DNA of 64,000 bases from Hyphomicrobiales bacterium (lineage in GTDB: Bacteria > Pseudomonadota > Alphaproteobacteria > Rhizobiales > CBDCVD01). The translations under genes and the position numbers were made by a program. Shown here one piece after another: positions 15,997 through 27,411 of the stretch; the first letter of the stretch is position 1, and the number at the start of each line of letters is the position of its first letter. Location: the NCBI GenBank assembly GCA_965224015.1, contig OZ245032.1, positions 854,863-918,862 on the forward strand, read 5' to 3'. The notes under the pieces are model-generated. The model searched no databases. It had not been told where the DNA came from and saw only the letters and a program-made list of their open reading frames with translations.

Positions 15997-16122
15997 GCGG
16001 CCGCGGGTATCATAGGCGAGGCGGATGCGCTCGCCACGGCTGCCGCGCGCCTCCTCCACACGCCCGCCCTTCGAGGATTGCCAGTTAAGGAAGGTATCGC
16101 TCGCCTGCGTTCGACCCGCCTG
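15997..16122 (-). repeat. 126-bp RHS-core fragment, direct repeat of 17976-18101
   Basis: Encodes QAGRTQASDTFLNWQSSKGGRVEEARGSRGERIRLAYDTRGR, versus QAGRTQPSDTFFNWQSSKGGRVEVARGSRGERIRLAYDTRGR in the other copy. Confidence 0.9.
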
Positions 16123-16745: not shown

Positions 16746-18194
16746 TTATTTACACTTTGCGCCGTGTTTACCTAACCGCATTGCTCCTGTACCAAGCAAA
16801 GTTCTATACTTGAAGGCTAATTTTCTAATTGCTCTTGCTGTGCACTTCCTACTCATATTTCGGCGAAAGATTGTATTTAAATTACGTTCCATTTGTTCAG
16901 AGTAGTCGCGATGCTCCGTCGTGCTTCCTCTATGAGTTCCTGCCGTTTTTGGCGAAGACGTTTGACCACCAAGCCCCACGCATTCGGGTAGATACATGAT
17001 ATTTTGCACTCCACCCATGTCAAACAGGTTTCCAGCACGTCGTATAGCGAGATGGTCGTGAAAGTCCCATGGAATAATATGGTGTCGCTGAAATCCCGGT
17101 TTTGAGGGCATAGATGCAGGAGATTTCGCGAGCCCTAAAGGATCTGTCCAATAACTCGGATTATTTACATACCCTTGCGATCTGAGCCCTCCTCCCAGAC
17201 CAATCGGATCGGGTGAGATGTATTACGCGGCCCTGGCATCATAGTATCGAGAGCGGTTGTCGTAAAGGCCGGTTTCGGCGTCCGCCCATTGGCCCTGAAA
17301 GCGAATGGGGCAGTGGTAGGGATCGGGATCATCAGATGCCTTTAGCGCCAGATTACCGCTGACCAACCCGCCGCCGCCACCACCTCCCGGGTCCCCTCGA
17401 GGCGAACTGCCAGGCCGCGTGCCGTACACCGGCTGTCCATCTGCACCATAGCCCTGAAAGCCGCCGGAGCCGGGCGGGCCATCGTCGTCATTCTCCGCCT
17501 GCCACAAGCGGCGAACTTCCCCCCAGGTCGTGTATTCCGCCGCCCAAACGAGCTCTCCAGCCTCAGATATCAATTCGCGCGGTGTGCCCAGATGATCGGT
17601 CACGACGTAGCTGAGATGGCCGGCCTCCTCACGCGCCAGGGGCACAAAACTGTCCGGCTCAAAGTGCCAGGCCGTTTCGCGAACGATCTCGCCGGTGTCG
17701 TTGGAGAGGCTTTCTTTAAGGATAACATCGCCGTCCCACAGATAGTCTGCGCGGCCGATCTCCCGCCACTCGCCGATATGGCCATCCTTGTCGTTCTTGT
17801 CGTTGGCAGCGCGGGCGTGTTGCACCCTGGCAAGGCGCCGGCCCAGCGCATCGTACGCATAGGTCCACTTGTGCCCCTGCGGCGTGAGCGCCGCAACAAG
17901 CCGGTCGCGACCATCCCAGGTGAAGACGTAACGCTGAGGCCGGAAGCCATTCCGCTCAACCTTGCGCTCGATCGCGCGGCCGCGGGTATCATAGGCGAGG
18001 CGGATGCGCTCGCCACGGCTGCCGCGCGCCACCTCCACACGCCCGCCCTTCGAGGATTGCCAGTTGAAGAAGGTATCGCTGGGCTGCGTTCGGCCCGCTT
18101 GCCGCTCGCCAGAAGGCTTGGCAAGATCCTCATAGTGTTTAAAGTGAATGGTTACATTAAACAAAGTACGGGAGAGTATACTTACTGCGTCCAA
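16746..18194 (-). pseudogene. Orphan RHS core fragment plus AHH (HNH/EndoVII-fold) nuclease toxin, split by one in-frame TAA
   Basis: YD repeats, [41 protein letters not shown]...[11 protein letters not shown] in frame with RHHIIP...NIMYLP...HRGSTTEH; stop at 17223-17225. Confidence 0.88.
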
Positions 18195-19363
18195 TCATGC
18201 TTTAGCAGCAACTTGTGGCGTATGGCGTAAGGGTTATAATCGTCCGGAATCGGAAGACCATCAAAATTTCCTAAATATTCAATATGATAATAGTCCTCAT
18301 CAGGCTTTACCCCATTAGCAGCAACGCCCTTCGCGAACAATATTTTCTTCAGATTTTGACGTAAATAATCCTCATCCTCAAAGATCATATCGTCACCGAT
18401 ATATCGCTTTCCACGCGCTGGCCCCCAAGTGAAATAATGAGTGTTCTGCGACAGTGTGCGCGCAAAAGTGCCATCCCTTTGTACGTAATCAAGGATCGCG
18501 TCCTTCGCCTTGGTTGAAATCAGAAAACCGATAGAAAATAATGTCCCTTCAAGTTCTGGCGTCGTGCAGCCCACCGTACCGCAATGCTCAAACTGCTTGA
18601 GCAATTCAGATAACATTTGCTCCTCGCCCAGTGCATGAAACGCCGCGGCAGCTTTCATGGCGGATGGCAAAATATATGCGGCGTCTGAGGTGGTAACTAA
18701 AGCAAGATCACCAAGCCTAGTAAACATGGCGCTGCGAGCGAGTTGCTCAGCATTGGGGCGATAGTCGGGATCTATCTCTTCTGCCCTGAAATCACGCACA
18801 TAGCCTTTCCAAAGCACAAAACGATAAGCTTTTTCTGCCTGGCTTTTTCGCAAAAGTTGTAGGCCACCATTGATGTCGGCTCGTTGGTCGCGGTTAATTA
18901 TAGCATCCATGCATTTAGCGACATGCTCATAGTCTTTCTTACGACCCGAATAGCGCATGATTTGGTAATATACACTGCCAAACTCCTTACCCAGTTTACC
19001 ATCGCAAGCGGCCTGATTAAGATAGGCAACATGATCTCGTGTACGGAACAAACTGAGCGCCTCCGATATAGGGCGACTTCTCTGCGCAAAGTCGGCGACG
19101 ATTTTCTCGAGTAGTTCGTTTTCGCCATAGGAAAACAAAATATCAACTGACTTGGAAAACCTGCTACTAATACCCGCATAGTAGGCGGGTCGTTGATCTC
19201 CTAACCACTGATAATCCAAGAGTGCACGAGGATTTATTTCAACCATCCAAAAAATATTGTTTGAAAATGGATCTTTCATAGCTGGCTTTTCTAGATACAT
19301 AGCCACAGGTAGGCAGGCAAGAACTGCAATTATCACGAATAATCTGCGAACACGTGGTCTCAT
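18182..19363 (-). CDS. Putative membrane-anchored/periplasmic immunity protein (B2)
   Basis: N-terminal hydrophobic helix; ATGA overlap with the upstream effector; shares QF..CG...C..PE.EG.L..I.F and YH...YNPY with the two 385-aa proteins. Confidence 0.65.
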   Translation of the reverse strand: MRPRVRRLFVIIAVLACLPVAMYLEKPAMKDPFSNNIFWMVEINPRALLDYQWLGDQRPAYYAGISSRFSKSVDILFSYGENELLEKIVADFAQRSRPISEALSLFRTRDHVAYLNQAACDGKLGKEFGSVYYQIMRYSGRKKDYEHVAKCMDAIINRDQRADINGGLQLLRKSQAEKAYRFVLWKGYVRDFRAEEIDPDYRPNAEQLARSAMFTRLGDLALVTTSDAAYILPSAMKAAAAFHALGEEQMLSELLKQFEHCGTVGCTTPELEGTLFSIGFLISTKAKDAILDYVQRDGTFARTLSQNTHYFTWGPARGKRYIGDDMIFEDEDYLRQNLKKILFAKGVAANGVKPDEDYYHIEYLGNFDGLPIPDDYNPYAIRHKLLLKHDWTQ

Positions 19364-20295
19364 TGGGGGGTACCAGTGGGCGAAATTGATATATTGGGTT
19401 TGTCTGATGGAGCAGTCTTGATTATCTTTGGCTGGTAAATTTTCTGGTCGCCAGAGGGTTTAGCAAGATCCTCATAGTGTTTAAAGTGAATGGTTACATT
19501 ATCAAGCGTATTTAAGCTGCTGTGCTCATGCCACGCTTCAATAATTGATTTAGGTACTTCAGATGTCACGGTCGCGGTATTGCAGCCGATAAAGCGTGAA
19601 AATTTTGTTGAAGCCTTGAAAACTTTTTGCTTTTCAATACTCTGCAGATTACGAGGACGAATCGTTAAACGTTTCTCTGGTCCGACCGGCGCTGCCGGAT
19701 CGTCTGGAGTACCATGATCTAAAGTCAACCAAAGCTCGCCGTCCACAGCATGGCCGATAAACCACAATCTAGTAATACTGTTGTCTTTTAGTCTATTGGC
19801 ATAGTTGTTAACATCATTAACTTCATTAATTGAGGAGTATACTAAGTCAAATTTTTTCGCGTTAGCTACGGCCTTTAACTCTTTGCGCATAAATGAATAA
19901 TAATCTGTGACATTTTTTTCAAATGTCCCTTTATGCCAATAGCGTTTTATTATTAACTTATCTTTAACTGCCTCCGCATGTTCATTACGTCTCCATGCGT
20001 CCCGAGAAAGATAGGCACTCCAAGGATCATCAGACTCAAAGTTATCATCATCATTGAAGCGATCATCATAACCCTTTTTATAGACCAGCACGTGCACGAT
20101 CTCATTATCGGGTGGATCCTGTTCATTTTCAAGATATGCCTTAAGCGTGACGAAATAACTAAGCCATGTCCTGTCATGATCTCGATCACCAGTATGATAT
20201 TTGCCGGGGGCTCCCAAAACAACGATGAAATTCCTGGGACATGTTTCACAGATTTCTCCGGCTTTTCCCTTACCCGGTTTGTCTGGCGGCGTCAT
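19360..20295 (-). CDS. Putative T6SS effector (A2) with caspase/C80-like motifs
   Basis: TGATG-coupled to a DUF4123 gene; N-terminal CETCP; RLWFIGH and SRFIGCN motifs. Confidence 0.65.
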   Translation of the reverse strand: MTPPDKPGKGKAGEICETCPRNFIVVLGAPGKYHTGDRDHDRTWLSYFVTLKAYLENEQDPPDNEIVHVLVYKKGYDDRFNDDDNFESDDPWSAYLSRDAWRRNEHAEAVKDKLIIKRYWHKGTFEKNVTDYYSFMRKELKAVANAKKFDLVYSSINEVNDVNNYANRLKDNSITRLWFIGHAVDGELWLTLDHGTPDDPAAPVGPEKRLTIRPRNLQSIEKQKVFKASTKFSRFIGCNTATVTSEVPKSIIEAWHEHSSLNTLDNVTIHFKHYEDLAKPSGDQKIYQPKIIKTAPSDKPNISISPTGTPQ

Positions 20296-20960
20296 CAGAT
20301 TTTTCCTTCGTCGGCGTTGTAAACATATTTCTCAAACAGTGCCGTTAATTCAGCTTCGTTTTTATCAGCAAGTGCTGGAGTGAATTCTGTGTGCTCGGTG
20401 TCAAACCGCTCTCCAAGCCGCCAGGCACAGAATACAAAACCCATCAGATCATATTCCGTTATCAGATCATAATCCTGTGCCCGGGCTATGTGCGTTCTAA
20501 CAAAGGCTCTGGCCTTTGTGATGTCTGCCTTGCCGTACCCTTCAGCTTCACCAATCTTTGCCAGCTCCTGCGCCACCATCTCGCAAAAAATCTCCATTTG
20601 CATCTGCTCAAACGCCGCCTCATGGCCTCGCCTGATCAGGGTAAGCGGCCCCGTGGATCGCTGCGCCCGTGCCTGCGACGCCACAGCAAACGGCTCGATC
20701 ATCGTTGGCTCCAGAGTGCGCATGTCAATGCGGTGCACGGTCATGGGAGACGCATCGTTTGCCTTGGCAAAGTGAAATATATTGTGCGCCTTCGAAAGTC
20801 CCGGTTCCTCGCACCAGTCCTCGGCGAAGATATGCGTGATCGGACCAAAAAATGCCGCAAGCTCTGGTCCGTTGCAGGACAAAAGCCAGACCCGCAAAAC
20901 CGCCGGATCAAAAAAACGAAACCGCACCACCCGACCATCGCTCTCCCACTCAACACGCAA
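20295..20960 (-). CDS. 5'-truncated DUF4123 (Tap-1/Tec-type T6SS effector adaptor), copy 1
   Basis: NFRRYLRVEWESDGRVVRFRFFDPAVLR...FFGPI matches the DUF4123 C-terminal motif; the N-terminal half is missing; TTG start has no clear RBS. Confidence 0.78.
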   Translation of the reverse strand: MRVEWESDGRVVRFRFFDPAVLRVWLLSCNGPELAAFFGPITHIFAEDWCEEPGLSKAHNIFHFAKANDASPMTVHRIDMRTLEPTMIEPFAVASQARAQRSTGPLTLIRRGHEAAFEQMQMEIFCEMVAQELAKIGEAEGYGKADITKARAFVRTHIARAQDYDLITEYDLMGFVFCAWRLGERFDTEHTEFTPALADKNEAELTALFEKYVYNADEGKI

Positions 20961-20976
20961 GTACCGGCGGAAGTTT

Positions 20977-22134
20977 TTACCTTAATAATCCGTTACTGCT
21001 TGCATAATTGTAATACGCCAATATACGTCTGACATATGGGTTGTAGTGCGTAGAATCAAATTCGGTTGGATGAAGATGATACGTCCCGAAATCGCTGTCG
21101 TAAATAACGCTATCACTGTAAGACCACAAGTGCCTTAGAATACCATCGACATTTCCGGCCCCATAACGCAAGTAAGGATCAAATTCCTCAAAAAAATTAA
21201 AAAAACCGTTCCGCTTTACCAACTCTTCGGAAAGGGGGCCGCCGGATTCGAGATATTTAATGAAATAATCAGAATAGGGCTTTTTATGAAAGAAACTGAT
21301 CGTCACCAACATGCCTTCATACTCAGGGACCCCACAGGGCGACGGCTTTTGACCGCACCAGGCAAATTGCCTTATCAGTGTCTGATAGGCTTGCTCCAGG
21401 CCGTCGCCAAACAGTTCGTGTAACGCAGTCAATACCGACTTTTTCAACGCGATATCATAGGGAGAGTGAGTGGGTGTAATTAATGTAATCTCCCCAAGTG
21501 CTTTAAATATTTCACTGTTACGTCTTTGCCTGACATTGGGGAAATAGGTGATTGTTCCAATATTGGCTAAGCGATGATCGGGTAAATCACCTTCATCCAT
21601 GAGCGCGCGATAATACATCCCAAAGTAAATCAAAATATTCGATGATGGATATATATAATCTTCGCGTACATGCTTGTAAAAAATATCTTCCGCGGACGTA
21701 TTTTGAAGAATTTTTTGATTATAAAAATTAAATATTGCCAACAAGTACGCGGTTCCTAGTCGAGTAAGAGTGTTATTGTCAAGCTCTTCTACACAGTCAT
21801 ATTGAAAAATAAGCTTGCTTTCCAAATTATTTTCTTGTTTCAATTTAACCAGGCTCTTTAATATTTTCCACTGTTGCGGAATAATGCGATTATAATGTTT
21901 GGAATATTTTTCATTATAATTATGTGTCATAATTAAACCGAAATCCAATAGGACAATAAATCCATACCTATTGTTAATATGTAATACTTCGTCACGACTC
22001 ATGTCTTCATGCTCCAAGCATTTTTCTAGATAAATCTTATCTACCGGCTCCAACTCATTAGCCACGGCATTTTTTACAAAAATACTCGATAAGCTTAGCA
22101 GTGAAAATAAAAGCAAATATCTATTATATATCAT
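20977..22134 (-). CDS. Putative periplasmic immunity protein (B1)
   Basis: Signal peptide (..KNAVA); TAATG-coupled to the upstream effector; AT-rich. Confidence 0.7.
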   Translation of the reverse strand: MIYNRYLLLFSLLSLSSIFVKNAVANELEPVDKIYLEKCLEHEDMSRDEVLHINNRYGFIVLLDFGLIMTHNYNEKYSKHYNRIIPQQWKILKSLVKLKQENNLESKLIFQYDCVEELDNNTLTRLGTAYLLAIFNFYNQKILQNTSAEDIFYKHVREDYIYPSSNILIYFGMYYRALMDEGDLPDHRLANIGTITYFPNVRQRRNSEIFKALGEITLITPTHSPYDIALKKSVLTALHELFGDGLEQAYQTLIRQFAWCGQKPSPCGVPEYEGMLVTISFFHKKPYSDYFIKYLESGGPLSEELVKRNGFFNFFEEFDPYLRYGAGNVDGILRHLWSYSDSVIYDSDFGTYHLHPTEFDSTHYNPYVRRILAYYNYASSNGLLR

Positions 22135-22904
22135 TATGGGAACTCCGCCTTTTTATATTGATCCGTTCCATTAGGAAAGTCATGATAGTCTTTGAAGTTA
22201 ATTGTAACCGGATACCCAACAGATTTTAATCCTGTCGCTTTATTCCACTCCTGTGCAACTATCTCGTTATTACAGCCGATGAATCTAGATTTAAGCTTAG
22301 ACGTTGTGCGAATCACACTTTTTTTTACCTTTTTGAATTCATCCGCGTCAAATACGGCATTTTTATTTCGAGGTCTAATGGGTATTCCTGGATCAATGTG
22401 ATCTAAATCCAACCAGAGTTCGTTACGTTTAGCAGAATGGCCGCTATAATACAATCTGGTAACAGAATCAGCTTTCATGCTATTGATATGGCTAACTATA
22501 GAATTTTTTGTCTTAATTCCAATGTATCTGTGCTTAGTACTATTACCTGCAATCCATTTCTTAATTCGATCAAGATAATTTTTTGCTTTAAAATGAGTTA
22601 TTATCCTTTTTACTTGATCGCTAATGAATTTTGGTCTTTTGTTATCTTTATTATCATCTGTCCACCTCTCGTTATAAGCGGGTGTGTAAACCAGCCAATC
22701 AACAGTTTCACCATCTTCCAATTTTATTTTTCCTGAGTCAAATCCATTGGCGAGGGTATAGTAATACGAATACCAGGCCCTATCGTGGGCGGGATCTCTT
22801 GGATCATAGACACCGGGTCCGCCTAAGATAATGATAAACTTCTTGGGACATGTTTCACAGAATTTTCCAGCCTTTTCCTTTTTCGGTTTGTCTGGCGGCG
22901 TCAT
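22134..22904 (-). CDS. Putative T6SS effector (A1), paralogue of A2
   Basis: Shared MTPPDKP..KAG..CETCP, G.PG.Y..HDR.W.SY, RLYYSGH (H156), SRFIGCN (C211). Confidence 0.65.
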   Translation of the reverse strand: MTPPDKPKKEKAGKFCETCPKKFIIILGGPGVYDPRDPAHDRAWYSYYYTLANGFDSGKIKLEDGETVDWLVYTPAYNERWTDDNKDNKRPKFISDQVKRIITHFKAKNYLDRIKKWIAGNSTKHRYIGIKTKNSIVSHINSMKADSVTRLYYSGHSAKRNELWLDLDHIDPGIPIRPRNKNAVFDADEFKKVKKSVIRTTSKLKSRFIGCNNEIVAQEWNKATGLKSVGYPVTINFKDYHDFPNGTDQYKKAEFP

Positions 22905-23569
22905 CAGATTTTTCCTTCGTCGGCGTTGTAAACATATTTCTCAAACAGTGCCGTTAATTCAGCTTCGTTTTTATCAGCAAGTGCTGGAGTGAATTCTGTG
23001 TGCTCGGTGTCAAACCGCTCTCCAAGCCGCCAGGCACAGAATACAAAACCCATCAGATCATATTCCGTTGTCAGATCATAATCCTGTGCCCGGGCTATGT
23101 GCGTTCTAACAAAGGCTCTGGCCTTTGTGATGTCTGCCTTGCCGTACCCTTCAGCTTCACCAATCTTTGCCAGCTCCTGCGCCACCATCTCGCAAAAAAT
23201 CTCCATTTGCATCTGCTCAAACGCCGCCTCATGGCCTCGTCTGATCAGGGTAAGCGGCCCCGTGGATCGCTGCGCCCGTGCCTGCGACGCTACAGCAAAC
23301 GGCTCGATCATCGTTGGCTCCAGAGTGCGCATGTCAATGCGGTGCACGGTCATGGGAGACGCATCGTCTGCCTTGGCAAAGTGAAATATATTGTGCGCCT
23401 TCGAAAGTCCCGGTTCCTCGCACCAGTCCTCGGCGAAGATATGCGTGATCGGACCAAAAAATGCCGCAAGCTCTGGTCCGTTGCAGGACAAAAGCCAGAC
23501 CCGCAAAACCGCCGGATCAAAAAAACGAAACCGCACCACCCGACCATCGCTCTCCCACTCAACACGCAA
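22904..23569 (-). CDS. 5'-truncated DUF4123 adaptor, copy 2
   Basis: Differs from copy 1 at 2 of 221 residues; truncated at the same point. Confidence 0.78.
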   Translation of the reverse strand: MRVEWESDGRVVRFRFFDPAVLRVWLLSCNGPELAAFFGPITHIFAEDWCEEPGLSKAHNIFHFAKADDASPMTVHRIDMRTLEPTMIEPFAVASQARAQRSTGPLTLIRRGHEAAFEQMQMEIFCEMVAQELAKIGEAEGYGKADITKARAFVRTHIARAQDYDLTTEYDLMGFVFCAWRLGERFDTEHTEFTPALADKNEAELTALFEKYVYNADEGKI

Positions 23570-23585
23570 GTACCGGCGGAAGTTT

Positions 23586-24743
23586 TTACCTTAATAATCC
23601 GTTACTGCTTGCATAATTGTAATACGCCAATATACGTCTGACATATGGGTTGTAGTGCGTAGAATCAAATTCGGTTGGATGAAGATGATACGTCCCGAAA
23701 TCGCTGTCGTAAATAACGCTATCACTGTAAGACCGCAAACGCCTTAGAATGCCATCGACATTTCCGGCCCCATAACGCAAGTAAGGATCAAATTCCTCAA
23801 AAAAATTAAAAAAACCGTTCCGCTTTACCAACTCTTCGGAAAGGGGGCCGCCGGATTCGAGATATTTAATGAAATAATCAGAATAGGGCTTTTTATGAAA
23901 GAAACTGATCGTCACCAACATACCTTCATACTCGGGGACCCCGCAGGGTGACGGCTTTTGACCGCACCAGGCAAATTGCCTTATCAGTGTCTGATAGGCT
24001 TGCTCCAGGCCGTCGCCAAACAGTTCGTGTAACGCAGTCAATACCGACTTTTTCAACGCGATATCATAGGGAGAGTGAGTGGGTGTAATTAAAGTAATCT
24101 CCCCAAGTGCTTTAAATATTTCACTGTTACGTCTTTGCCTGGCATTTGGGGAATAGGTGATTGTTCCAATATTGGCTAGGCGATGATCGGGTAAATCACC
24201 TTCATCCATAAGCGCGCGATAATACATCCCAAAGTAAATCAAAATATCCGATGATGGATATATATAATCTTCGCTTACATGCCTGTAAAAAATATCTTCC
24301 GCGGACGTATTTTGAAGAATTTTTTGATTATAAAAATTAAATATTGCCAACAAGTACGCGGTTCCTCGTCGAGTAAAGGTGTTATTGTCAAATTTTTGTA
24401 TACAGTCATATTGAAAAAAAAGTTTGCTCTCCAAATTATTTTCTTGTTTCAATTTAACCAGGCTCTTTAATATTTTCCATTGTTGCGGAATAATGCGATT
24501 ATAATGTTTGGAATATTTTTCACTATAATTATGTGTCTTAATAATTCTGAAATTCAATAGGGCAATAAATCCATACCTATTGTTAAGGTGCAATACTTCA
24601 TCACGACTCATGTCTTCATGCTCCAAGCATTTTTCAAGATAAATCTTATCTACCGGCTCCAATTCATTAGCCATAGTATTTTTTACAAAAATACTCGATA
24701 AGCTTAGCAGTGAAAACAAAAGCAAATATCTATTATATATCAT
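23586..24743 (-). CDS. Putative periplasmic immunity protein (B0), paralogue of B1
   Basis: Same length as B1 (385 aa); about 23 substitutions by manual count. Confidence 0.7.
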   Translation of the reverse strand: MIYNRYLLLFSLLSLSSIFVKNTMANELEPVDKIYLEKCLEHEDMSRDEVLHLNNRYGFIALLNFRIIKTHNYSEKYSKHYNRIIPQQWKILKSLVKLKQENNLESKLFFQYDCIQKFDNNTFTRRGTAYLLAIFNFYNQKILQNTSAEDIFYRHVSEDYIYPSSDILIYFGMYYRALMDEGDLPDHRLANIGTITYSPNARQRRNSEIFKALGEITLITPTHSPYDIALKKSVLTALHELFGDGLEQAYQTLIRQFAWCGQKPSPCGVPEYEGMLVTISFFHKKPYSDYFIKYLESGGPLSEELVKRNGFFNFFEEFDPYLRYGAGNVDGILRRLRSYSDSVIYDSDFGTYHLHPTEFDSTHYNPYVRRILAYYNYASSNGLLR

Positions 24744-24870
24744 TATGGGAACTCCTCCTTTTCATATGTATCTGCTCCATTAGGAAAGCCATGATAGTCT
24801 TTGAAGTCAATTGTAACCGGATACCCAACAGATCTTAATCCTGCCGCTTTACTCCACGCCTCAGCAACTA
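24743..24870 (-). pseudogene. 3' remnant of a third A-type effector (A0), cut by an IS
   Basis: Reads LVAEAWSKAAGLRSVGYPVTIDFKDYHGFPNGADTYEKEEFP*, 30/42 identical to the A1 C-terminus; ends at the IS left end. Confidence 0.88.
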
Positions 24871-25662
24871 GGTCCTGTTGACAAACTGGGTTTCCAAATC
24901 ACTTAAAATGTGATTCAAGATAACTTTTGAGGAGGTTATCATGACACGTTTGCTGATGGAAGATGCGGAATGGGCGTTCTTTGAACCCTTTATTGTTGCC
25001 ATTCGCGGCCGCGGTGGACGTCCGGCTAGGGATCATCGTCGTGTCCTGGACGGCATATTCTGGATCGCACGCACCGGCGCCCCATGGCGAGATCTACCTG
25101 AGGCGTTCGGTAAATGGTCGAGCGTCTACCGCCAGTTCCGACGCTGGACGTTGGCTGGGCTTTGGGAGTTGATCCTGGAGACCTTGAACGAGAGCGGGGC
25201 GGCACCCGATCAGGTTCAGATGATCGACAGTACCGTCATCCGCGCCCACCATCAGGCAGCAGGCGCAAAAGGGGGGCTCAAAAAGAAGGTCTTGGCCGTT
25301 CAAAAGGTGGCTTTACGACAAAGATACATCTGATTACCAACGCTTTTGGGCTGCCTTTGAGAGCCGAGGTCAGCGGCGGCCAGGTTTCTGACTACAAGGG
25401 GTACGACCTCTTGCACGAGGACGCTATAACGCCGGCCAAGGTGCTAATCGCTGACAAGGGCTATGATTCAGACGCGATCAGGGATGATGTTGAGAAACAC
25501 GGTGGCGTGTCGATCATTCCGGGGCGCAAATGCCGGAAAGACCCCATTCCCGTCGATGAGTTCCTTTATGGCTTGCGTAATCGGATCGAACGGTGTTTTA
25601 ACAGACTCAAGAACGCCAGACGGCTGGCAACAAGGTACGACAAAACCGCAGCGAGCTATATC

Positions 25663-27287
25663 GTCGTTTGTGAAGAATTTCCATTGCATTGATATTGTTT
25701 GATTATCAGGCTTTTCGGGCCTTCGATATTGCAAGATTTTGCACGCCTGTGGTTTGTTTCCTTGCAATTTGCGTAACGTCCTTTTCTGTGATTCACTGGT
25801 CAAACAAGTGATTTGGAGAGGGATATGAAGCCAAGAGAACCTTTTAAGACCGGTCAGTTCGATATGTTTCGTTCAAGGCTGGATCAGATCATCAACATGG
25901 GCCACGAGAAGGCGATTTTAGCCGACAAGATCGATTGGCAATTTCTGTCGGATAAATGTGAGGCAGTCTATGCGGACAAAGCCGGTCACCCGCCCCTTCC
26001 GACGCGGCTGATGGCGGGACTGCATATCCTCAAATATGCCGACAATCTTTCCGATGAAGAAGTCTGCGCCCGCTTTGTGGAGAACCCGTATTATCAATAT
26101 TTGTGCGGTGAGGAGTTCTTTCGTCATGATCTTCCGCTTGAGCGCTCGTCAATGACCCGATGGCGTCAGCGGATGGGCGAGGAGAGGATACAAGCCCTGT
26201 TGCAGGAGAGCCTTGCCGTGGCCTTGAAAGTGGGGGCTGCGAAGCCTTCGGATTTTACCCAGGTGATTGTCGATACCACGGTTCAGGAGAAGAACGTTGC
26301 TTATCCAACGGACGCCAAACTGTGTCACAAGGCCCGGGAGCGGTTGGTTAAGCTGGCGAAGAAGCACGGCATCAAGCTACGCCAGTCCTATGTGCGGGTG
26401 AGCAAGAAGGCCCTGATCAAACACCAGCGCTATGCCCATGCCAAGCACTACAAGCGGGCGAAAAGGGAATTAAAACGCCTTAAAACCTGGCTTGGCCGTA
26501 CCATTCGTGACATCAAGCGTAAGATTAAAGGCAACAAGGCCCACCAGGAGGCTTTCCTGCGGCCCCTGTGGCTGGCCGAGCGGGTGATGACCCAGAAACC
26601 GCGGGATGATATTCCAAAGAAAGTCTATAGCCTGCATGCTCCCGAGGTAGAGTGTATTGGCAAGGGAAAGGCTCACAAGCCTTACGAGTTTGGCGTCAAG
26701 GCATCAGTGGCCACCACGCTCAAGCGTTCAAAGGGGGGTCAGTTCGCCATTCATGCCAAGGCATTGCCGGGCAGGCCGTATGATGGTCACACACTTGCCA
26801 GCGTCATTCCCGCGATTGAGGCAATCACCGGTGCAGTCCTCAAGCGTATTCTCGCAGACGCCGGCTACAAGGGCCACAACGCCCCCTTAAGTCACAAGTT
26901 TCGGGTCTTTACCGCCGGCCAGAAACGAAGGGTGACACCGGCCATCAAACGCCAGATGAGACGACGGGCAGCAATTGAGCCGGTGATACCAGCGGTATTG
27001 GCTTTTTGTACAAGCTGACTTGTGTGTCGTATTGATAAGACAACGGTTTTACGCTGGGCCAGGAGTCAAACGCAAGGCCCCTTGGTATGATGGGTCATCT
27101 CAAGTCAGGACACCGCATGGATCGGAACTATCTTGCTCATGAACAAGGCGATGCCATCAACCCGATCCTTGCAGCCGCAGGCTACAACTTCCGCCTTATC
27201 CTCAAATGGATCAAGGCTTTTTGTTTCAAAATCTGGATCGTGTGGATATTCAATCAATCAGCCAAAATCGCATAGTTCACAATCGAC
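25663..27287 (+). mobile_element. Second IS5-family element (large single transposase), nested and itself disrupted
   Basis: IRs GTCGTTTGTGAA / TTCACAATCGAC; TATATC duplicated on both sides; transposase motifs DTTVQEKN, KPYEFG, DAGYKGH, AAIEPV|GHLK split by a MITE. Confidence 0.9.
26987..27087 (+). mobile_element. 101-bp MITE (R1), diverged copy inside the transposase gene
   Basis: TGA-TACCAGCGG...CCCTTGGTA-TGA; removing it plus one TGA restores CCG GTG ATG GGT CAT (PVMGH). Confidence 0.9.
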
Positions 27288-27361
27288 TATATCGGCTTTA
27301 TCTTTATCTTTATCTTTATCGTCTCCGCTAGACTGTGGTGCAAACAGTGTGTCAACACAGC

Positions 27362-27411
27362 CTAGATCAGCATACGTTGAGTTGTCCCTATAGCAAAATG
27401 GGTACACCTAA
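27362..27411. repeat. R2-family repeat (partial)
   Basis: CTAGATCAGCATACGTTGAGTTGTCCCTATAGCAAAATGGGTACACCTAA. Confidence 0.7.

Follow-up and report, generated by a model that had tools for sequence, protein, structure and literature searches.

The 64,000-nucleotide (nt) stretch analysed here (the window; contig OZ245032.1 of a Hyphomicrobiales bacterium, positions 854,863 to 918,862) raises the question of why two neighbouring genes of one family differ almost exclusively in one half. The genes, B0 and B1, and a more distant relative, B2, follow genes or gene remnants of candidate effectors (E0, E1 and E2, respectively) in a compact array of toxin-type cassettes, low in guanine plus cytosine (GC), that occupies the minus strand from position 24870 down to 16085. 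B0 and B1 both encode 385 amino acids (aa) and align without gaps, with 47 nt and 23 aa differences (94% identity). Of the replacements, 21 lie at residues 23-201 and the other two at residues 335 and 337, in agreement with the original prediction, made from the letters of the window, of about 23 differences with about 21 in the first ~200 residues. That prediction had considered the three genes to be immunity genes, with a C-terminal half homogenised with an adjacent DUF4123 arm, which is here a fragment of an adaptor gene.

B0 and B1 sit in a gap-free direct repeat of 2,038 nt (Table 1; 96.27% identity by blastn). Each copy consists of the 3' tail of an effector gene, the B gene, a 5'-truncated DUF4123 fragment, and the first codons of the next effector gene, after the first 71 nt of which the DNA homology stops. 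The predicted span of the family, 18182-24743, is correct for the three B genes, and the repeat carrying B0 continues to 24870. The mismatch density is 11.0% in the effector tail, 6.0% in B nt 1-651, 1.6% in B nt 652-1158, 0% in the 16-nt spacer between B and the DUF4123 fragment, 0.6% in the fragment itself (4 differences in 666 nt), and 15.5% in the first 71 nt of the next effector gene. The longest stretches without a mismatch, of 367 and 187 nt, are located at the B 3' end and DUF4123 fragment and across the junction of the fragment with the effector gene.

Divergence is not uniform on the proper alignment: the max-chi-square breakpoint test yields a permutation p=0.0012 within B and p<0.0005 over the full 2,038-nt repeat. 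A two-break scan sets apart 1,480 nt of low divergence (24365-22886, with 21 differences) from flanks diverged by 8.7% and 21% (p<0.0005). The predicted lopsidedness is real. The best single break within B is near codon 126, and the profile is a gradient falling toward the DUF4123 fragment rather than a step at residue 200. An assembly artefact was ruled out, as 76 positions distinguish the two copies and the flanks of each are unique.

Silent positions follow the same gradient. Nei-Gojobori estimates on the two repeat copies give synonymous divergence (dS) of 0.151 for B codons 1-201, 0.062 for B codons 202-385, and 0.013 for the DUF4123 fragment. The respective nonsynonymous values (dN) are 0.047, 0.0046 and 0.0039, with dN/dS of 0.31, 0.07 and 0.29. 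Third-position differences number 16/201 in the N-terminal half of B, 7/185 in the C-terminal half, and 2/222 in the fragment; the contrast between the N-terminal half and the fragment has p=0.0004, and the contrasts between adjacent segments have p about 0.09. Both the max-chi-square test and the third-position contrast, the kind of gene-conversion analysis that the original prediction had proposed, reveal heterogeneous silent divergence with localisable breakpoints. Since silent divergence itself falls along the repeat, its segments differ in coalescence time, and a single duplication with selection cannot account for the pattern. This points to a mosaic produced by recombination or gene conversion, selection alone being insufficient. 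The predicted homogenisation of the C-terminal half with the DUF4123 arm is thereby supported in the sense of a shared younger history.

Constraint differs as well. The N-terminal half of B admits about four times more replacement per silent change than the C-terminal half, and the approximately ten-fold lower dN of the latter is the product of a younger history and a stronger constraint. There is no sign of positive selection across the N-terminal half as a whole, and many of the replacements there are conservative; the data thus lend no support to the original prediction that this half sets specificity and co-evolves with the effector. GC content rises along the same axis, from 32% in the N-terminal half of B through 43.5% in the C-terminal half to 53% in the DUF4123 fragment, compared to 55% in the genome; this may reflect mixed origins or conversion bias.

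The DUF4123 fragment starts 4-8 nt past the B stop codon, at the invariant core FRRYLRVE.ESDGR.VRFRFFDPAVLRVWLLS, which is the most conserved stretch of the gene. Both copies share the same junction with B, so it was formed once and then copied. At the other end of the repeat, the only effector sequence upstream of B0 is a 127-nt tail (42 codons) cut at 24870/24871 by an insertion sequence (IS). This E0 tail differs from the E1 tail (22261-22135) at 14 of 127 nt, and tblastn gives 67% aa identity over the last 46 aa. A tblastn search of the whole genome with E1 and E2 yielded only E1, E2 and remnants, and no other copy of the E0 effector. B0 is indeed an orphan, as had been predicted. The left end of the IS, GGTCCTGTTGACAAACTGG, begins where the repeat homology stops, and a matching inverted end is found at ~27340-27362. 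Beyond the far end there is an acoC-like gene, and the rest of E0 is not there.

We explain these observations as follows, with a probability of roughly 0.62 for the whole: an immunity family in tandem type VI secretion system (T6SS) modules, shaped by recombination and by constraint on its C-terminal half. B0, B1 and B2 would belong to a very rare family of immunity proteins, exported via Sec and either periplasmic or membrane-anchored, and the translation of each would be coupled to that of a signal-less effector from the E family, which is just as rare. These pairs would sit in tandem effector modules, each composed of the 3' part of a DUF4123 adaptor gene, an effector gene, and an immunity gene. 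E0-B0 and E1-B1 would be former allelic variants of one subtype, diverged by ~9-11% in DNA. At a later time, the DUF4123 fragments of the tandem units would have recombined by gene conversion or unequal crossing-over, which would have homogenised a tract centred on the fragment, ending sharply ~20 nt into the effector gene and fading on the other side through the 3' half of B. Purifying selection, ~4 times stronger on the C-terminal half of B, would be a second, multiplying cause. An IS-associated deletion would then have eliminated all sequence upstream of the final 42 codons of E0 and made B0 an orphan.

The layout is consistent with coupled pairs. Stop and start codons overlap in an operon-like manner at the DUF-E1, E1-B1 and E2-B2 boundaries: the E1 start overlaps the stop of the DUF4123 fragment by 1 base, its stop overlaps the B1 start by 1 base, and the B2 start overlaps the E2 stop by 4 nt. 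In each pair a candidate effector without a predicted signal is followed by an immunity-type gene with a predicted N-terminal hydrophobic signal or anchor.

Several points weigh against this explanation. B and E match no family in Pfam, NCBIfam or the PDB, and toxicity of E and its neutralisation by B are suggested by the gene layout. A present-day role of the E/B pair in self-protection is doubtful in a genome without a T6SS. Taken by itself, the difference in dS between the B halves reaches only marginal significance (p=0.08-0.09), and mutation-rate differences tied to the change in GC could add to the gradient. The two close copies are compatible with conversion between them, import of a third allele, and staggered duplication alike, whatever the partner and direction of the exchange.

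Alternatively, the repeat could stem from a single tandem duplication of recent date, without later recombination, after which the N-terminal half of B came under diversifying selection as it tracked effector variants; this is the selection part of the original prediction, taken as the only cause. This history would account for the concentration of 21 of the 23 replacements in residues 23-201 and for the four-fold higher dN/dS of this half. The replacements also bunch at residues 61-74 and 109-126 (13 nonsynonymous and 1 synonymous changes), and the E tail next to B has dN/dS 1.8 (13 and 2 changes). However, the patches are marginal or not significant once the post hoc choice of windows is corrected for (p=0.04-0.24), and dN/dS of the N-terminal half is 0.31, below 1. 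The ratio in the E tail carries no weight, because the E0 tail is a dead remnant, in which values near or above 1 are expected without selection. Moreover, silent divergence should be uniform under this history, yet it drops about 11-fold from the N-terminal half of B to the DUF4123 fragment (p=0.0004). We consider this history quite unlikely. Another possibility is sequential displacement, in which the modules were imported separately by horizontal transfer and recombined via the DUF4123 core, so that the similar C-terminal halves and DUF4123 fragments mark crossover points with the incoming allele. This is the established model for the arrays of Vibrio cholerae (PMC5361080), and it agrees with the effector-tail remnants at 24744-24870 and 18099-18159, with the GC content of E and B (38-46%, against 55% in the genome), and with the lack of a relative of the DUF4123 fragment in the sister species. 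But the order is reversed: the orphan B0 and the effector remnant stand upstream of the complete modules, whereas the model places them downstream. Both B/DUF junctions are base-identical, with no differences in the 16-nt spacer, which implies that the junction was formed once and copied within the array; and the searches made yielded no donor allele. Import thus seems unlikely.

Finally, B could be an exported protein unrelated to immunity that happens to follow an effector gene, the pattern being ordinary domain-wise constraint in a duplicated gene. Indeed, no family or structural link to immunity was found, 385 aa is large for an immunity protein, and the sole relative outside the window is alone among housekeeping genes. 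This would leave unexplained the three separate effector-B pairs with overlapping stop and start codons and the divergence of E and B in step (E1/E2 32%, B1/B2 29% identity). The presence of an export signal on B and its absence from E match the standard arrangement for T6SS effectors that act in the periplasm, and a lone copy elsewhere is in keeping with what is known of orphan immunity genes. We regard this possibility as very improbable, and retain the explanation by recombination between immunity modules together with constraint.

Table 1. Coordinates of the features of the array and its flanks in the window
Feature	Position	Strand	Basis or remark
Composite IS5-family insertion	24871-27362	+	Pfam transposase domains, ends read
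Open reading frame (ORF) of the IS, DUF4096/DDE transposase	24941-25692		
Second transposase ORF (DUF772)	25813-27018		
E0 remnant, last 42 codons of an E1-type effector	24744-24870	-	aligned to E1 tail
B0, 385 aa, putative exported immunity protein, cognate effector gone	23586-24743	-	ORF
DUF4123 adaptor fragment 1, open frame of 228 codons	22904-23590	-	Pfam and alignment to full-length relatives
E1, 256 aa, putative effector, signal-less	22134-22904	-	ORF
B1, 385 aa, putative immunity protein for E1	20977-22134	-	ORF
DUF4123 fragment 2	20295-20981	-	truncation point and 16-nt B junction identical to fragment 1
E2, 311 aa, putative effector, second subtype	19360-20295	-	ORF
B2, 393 aa, distant B family member	18182-19363	-	ORF and alignment
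Scar of another E2-like effector tail (NVTIHFKHYEDLAKPSG), joined to Rhs core fragment	18099-18159	-	direct repeat of 19441-19501
Direct repeat copy 1: E tail, B0, DUF4123 fragment, 24 E codons	22833-24870	-	blastn
Direct repeat copy 2: E1 tail, B1, DUF4123 fragment, 24 E2 codons	20224-22261	-	blastn
Rhs fragment, downstream of the array	17223-18194	-	
AHH nuclease domain, downstream of the array	16746-17111	-	
Immunity gene of the Rhs-AHH cassette, 215 aa	16085-16732	-	

The B proteins form one family with three members in the window, as predicted, and the N-terminus of each is signal-peptide-like or anchor-like. B2 is homologous to B1 only over B1 residues 175-370 (29% identity, E=8e-14), and the N-terminal halves cannot be aligned; the tolerance of this half to replacements fits the latter observation. 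All share the motif QF..CG-x(3-5)-C..PE.EG.L..(I/V).F and a YNPY motif. The original prediction had described B2 as distant with these motifs kept; the cysteine pair, PE.EG and YNPY are present, but the spacing between the cysteines varies: it is CGQKPSPC in B0 and B1, CGTVGC in B2, and CGLYYC in the single outside relative. The cysteine pair and the PE.EG motif are invariant across all four known members. B consists of two parts, a fast-evolving N-terminal half (~26-170) and a conserved C-terminal half (~175-370) with CG-x(3-5)-C and PE.EG. The N-terminus of B0, MIYNRYLLLFSLLSLSSIFVKNTMA|NE, resembles a Sec signal peptide, and this export signal together with the invariant cysteine pair makes the predicted periplasmic disulphide plausible. 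A low-confidence AlphaFold model of B1, built from a four-sequence alignment, has a predicted local distance difference test score (pLDDT) of 38.4 and a predicted template modelling score (pTM) of 0.28, with pLDDT <50 around residues 263-270.

Public data contain hardly any relatives of the two families B and E. When 1.84 billion representative proteins were scanned in full with HMMER, the B profile matched one outside relative, P0019, a protein of 365 aa with an N-terminal hydrophobic anchor and the cysteine-pair motif, 27.5% identical to B2 over residues 8-316. Its lone gene (L009:9932-11098, assembly from run SRR24146886) lies between housekeeping genes, namely a gene for an ATP-binding cassette (ABC) transporter binding protein and folD, and its frame extends upstream to the hydrophobic anchor. 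As no effector adjoins it, P0019 looks like another orphan. Word-indexed homologue searches with B1 and E2 returned only the proteins of the window, and scans of genome and metagenome contigs with alignment patterns of E and B found nothing; no relative of E was seen in either type of search. Neither family matches Pfam, NCBIfam or PDB sequences. E1 and E2 are 32% identical over the full length; both have His (GH), Asp-His (LDH) and Cys (IGCN) at conserved positions, as well as an alternating strand-helix pattern. The AlphaFold model of E1, from a two-sequence alignment, has pLDDT 38.9 and pTM 0.43, and a Foldseek search of the PDB with the low-confidence E model gave only generic alpha/beta folds (E>0.03).

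The Pfam match of the adaptor fragment covers only profile positions 79/86-118 of 119, scoring 20.7 bits in hmmscan against a cut-off of 25.8, and 29.5 bits when the genome was scanned. The fragment is clearly homologous to full-length DUF4123 proteins (E=3e-59, 48% identity) of 335-379 aa from Pseudovibrio, Ruegeria and other assemblies. The C-terminal 221-228 codons are present, ~150 N-terminal residues are missing, and the first start-like codon in copy 1 is TTG at 23569. The Pseudovibrio relatives sit in vgrG-PAAR-DUF4123-effector loci. Among the relatives, nucleotide identity drops from 78-88% along the core to 32-49% over the final ~90 codons. Neither the sister species nor a class-wide sample of 400 genomes yielded a relative of the fragment, and its own genome has no full-length one.

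Unrelated effectors encoded after this DUF4123 subfamily share a leader of ~24 N-terminal residues with a CxxC pair (window 22833-22904 and 20224-20295; L007:1860-1931; L010:1719-1790). Examples are E1 and E2 (MTPPDKP.K.KAG..CETCP), a 294-aa protein (MANPSIPPAGKPTDICADCP), and Tle1-like lipases of Pseudovibrio (..SICETCKF). The leader may be a marker for loading onto the adaptor or the spike. A candidate relationship of E to Tle1 was rejected, as the profile comparison with Tle1-like effectors and the 294-aa effector showed similarity only in the first ~24 residues.

The insertion next to the E0 remnant is an IS5-family element with a two-ORF (frameshifted) transposase, and the DUF772 ORF lies inside the same inverted ends. 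A second transposase within the same ends suggests that one insertion is nested in another. The short motif ctttat occurs four times in tandem at ~27298-27322.

At the downstream end of the array, the scar of the E2-like tail (54-61 nt) is 90-94% identical to the corresponding segment of E2. It is followed by an orphan Rhs cassette with an AHH nuclease domain. This toxin is split by an in-frame TAA at 17223-17225 (minus strand), just before the YISPDPIGL stretch and the AHH domain, and its 215-aa immunity gene is intact. The cassette is flanked by a 126-nt direct repeat of the Rhs core (15997-16122 and 17976-18101; 94% identical, 1,979 nt apart). The main Rhs region of contig C1 (~2.894-2.905 Mb) holds near-identical AHH/immunity pairs.

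Neither TssC (PF05943) nor Hcp (PF05638) is present in the genome (3.6 Mb, 100% complete), whereas an identical search detects TssC in the sister species. VgrG is represented by fragments only. No vgrG or PAAR gene stands upstream of the array, where the IS is followed by aco genes, and there is no T6SS apparatus in the genome, a point that the original prediction had missed. The array with all three B genes and both intact effectors is therefore a relic left without its apparatus. Against attackers carrying these effectors, the immunity genes of the array could still be protective. Comparison of the DNA with the sister species gave ~70% identity only, with no match for one flank, and no empty site was recovered. 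Scattered relics of T6SS cargo occur at C1:1777598-1785708, 1265718-1266459 and 134210-134350. They comprise two VgrG fragments, a frameshifted-looking PAAR gene beside an unrelated full-length DUF4123 gene, and another PAAR fragment. Triplicated genes encoding 152 aa, with an AHH-like gene, are found near one of the VgrG fragments.

In V. cholerae, an effector module consists of the 3' end of tap-1, the effector gene, and the immunity gene, and is exchanged by recombination in the conserved core of the adaptor (Unterweger 2015, PMC4557670). The modules considered here have the same composition as the aux-1/Tap-1 module, and, as with Tap-1, the adaptor relatives are chimeric, with a variable, effector-specific C-terminus behind a conserved core at which recombination takes place. 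However, the adaptor 3' parts in the window are free, decapitated, and arranged in tandem, in a genome that has no full-length adaptor of this kind, no intact vgrG and no T6SS. The GC content of the adaptor fragment (53%) is far higher than that of the effector and immunity genes (38%), whereas in V. cholerae it matches, and the effector and immunity families are unrelated to TseL and TsiV1. Orphan immunity genes in V. cholerae arrays are preceded by 3' remnants of effector genes (Kirchberger 2017, PMC5361080). Similarly, the intact B0 is preceded only by the 3' end of an effector gene, several immunity genes of one family stand in a row, and the recombination history is mosaic. Unlike these arrays, the orphan is at the upstream end, its effector appears to have been lost to an IS-associated deletion and not to an incoming module, and the downstream units keep complete effector genes.

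The other known parallel is with orphan rhs-CT/rhsI and cdiA-CT/cdiI cassettes of the Rhs and contact-dependent inhibition (CDI) systems, which reportedly form tandem silent arrays, each cassette headed by a fragment of a conserved gene. The units in the window are likewise arranged in tandem and headed by a conserved-gene fragment usable as a homology arm, followed by a variable toxin gene and an immunity gene; a true Rhs-AHH-immunity orphan directly follows the array. Unlike in Rhs/CDI cassettes, the homology arm is a separate adaptor gene and not a part of the toxin polypeptide, and an exchange would restore the adaptor and import an effector gene distinct from it.

One tentative possibility, which we put forward as a speculation, is that the array is a silent archive of exchangeable T6SS modules, each with an adaptor fragment at its head whose first residues are exactly those of the invariant DUF4123 core. 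By recombining with a full-length adaptor gene, a module would replace the adaptor tail, the effector gene and the immunity gene together in a single step. Conversion driven by these same arms would extend into the immunity genes, so that their conserved halves are kept uniform while the specificity halves diverge. If true, this would be an adaptor-based counterpart of the Rhs/CDI orphan cassettes, with previously undescribed effector and immunity families.

These results do not change the current understanding of such systems; their value is in a clean example and a source of novel proteins. The locus is a physical example, outside the vibrios, of V. cholerae-type effector modules existing as free-standing tandem units. 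The genome has lost its T6SS, kept by the sister species, yet holds intact candidate effector and immunity genes, and is thus a case for studying how long immunity genes outlive the weapon. The homology arms that move such modules would also reshape the neighbouring immunity genes.

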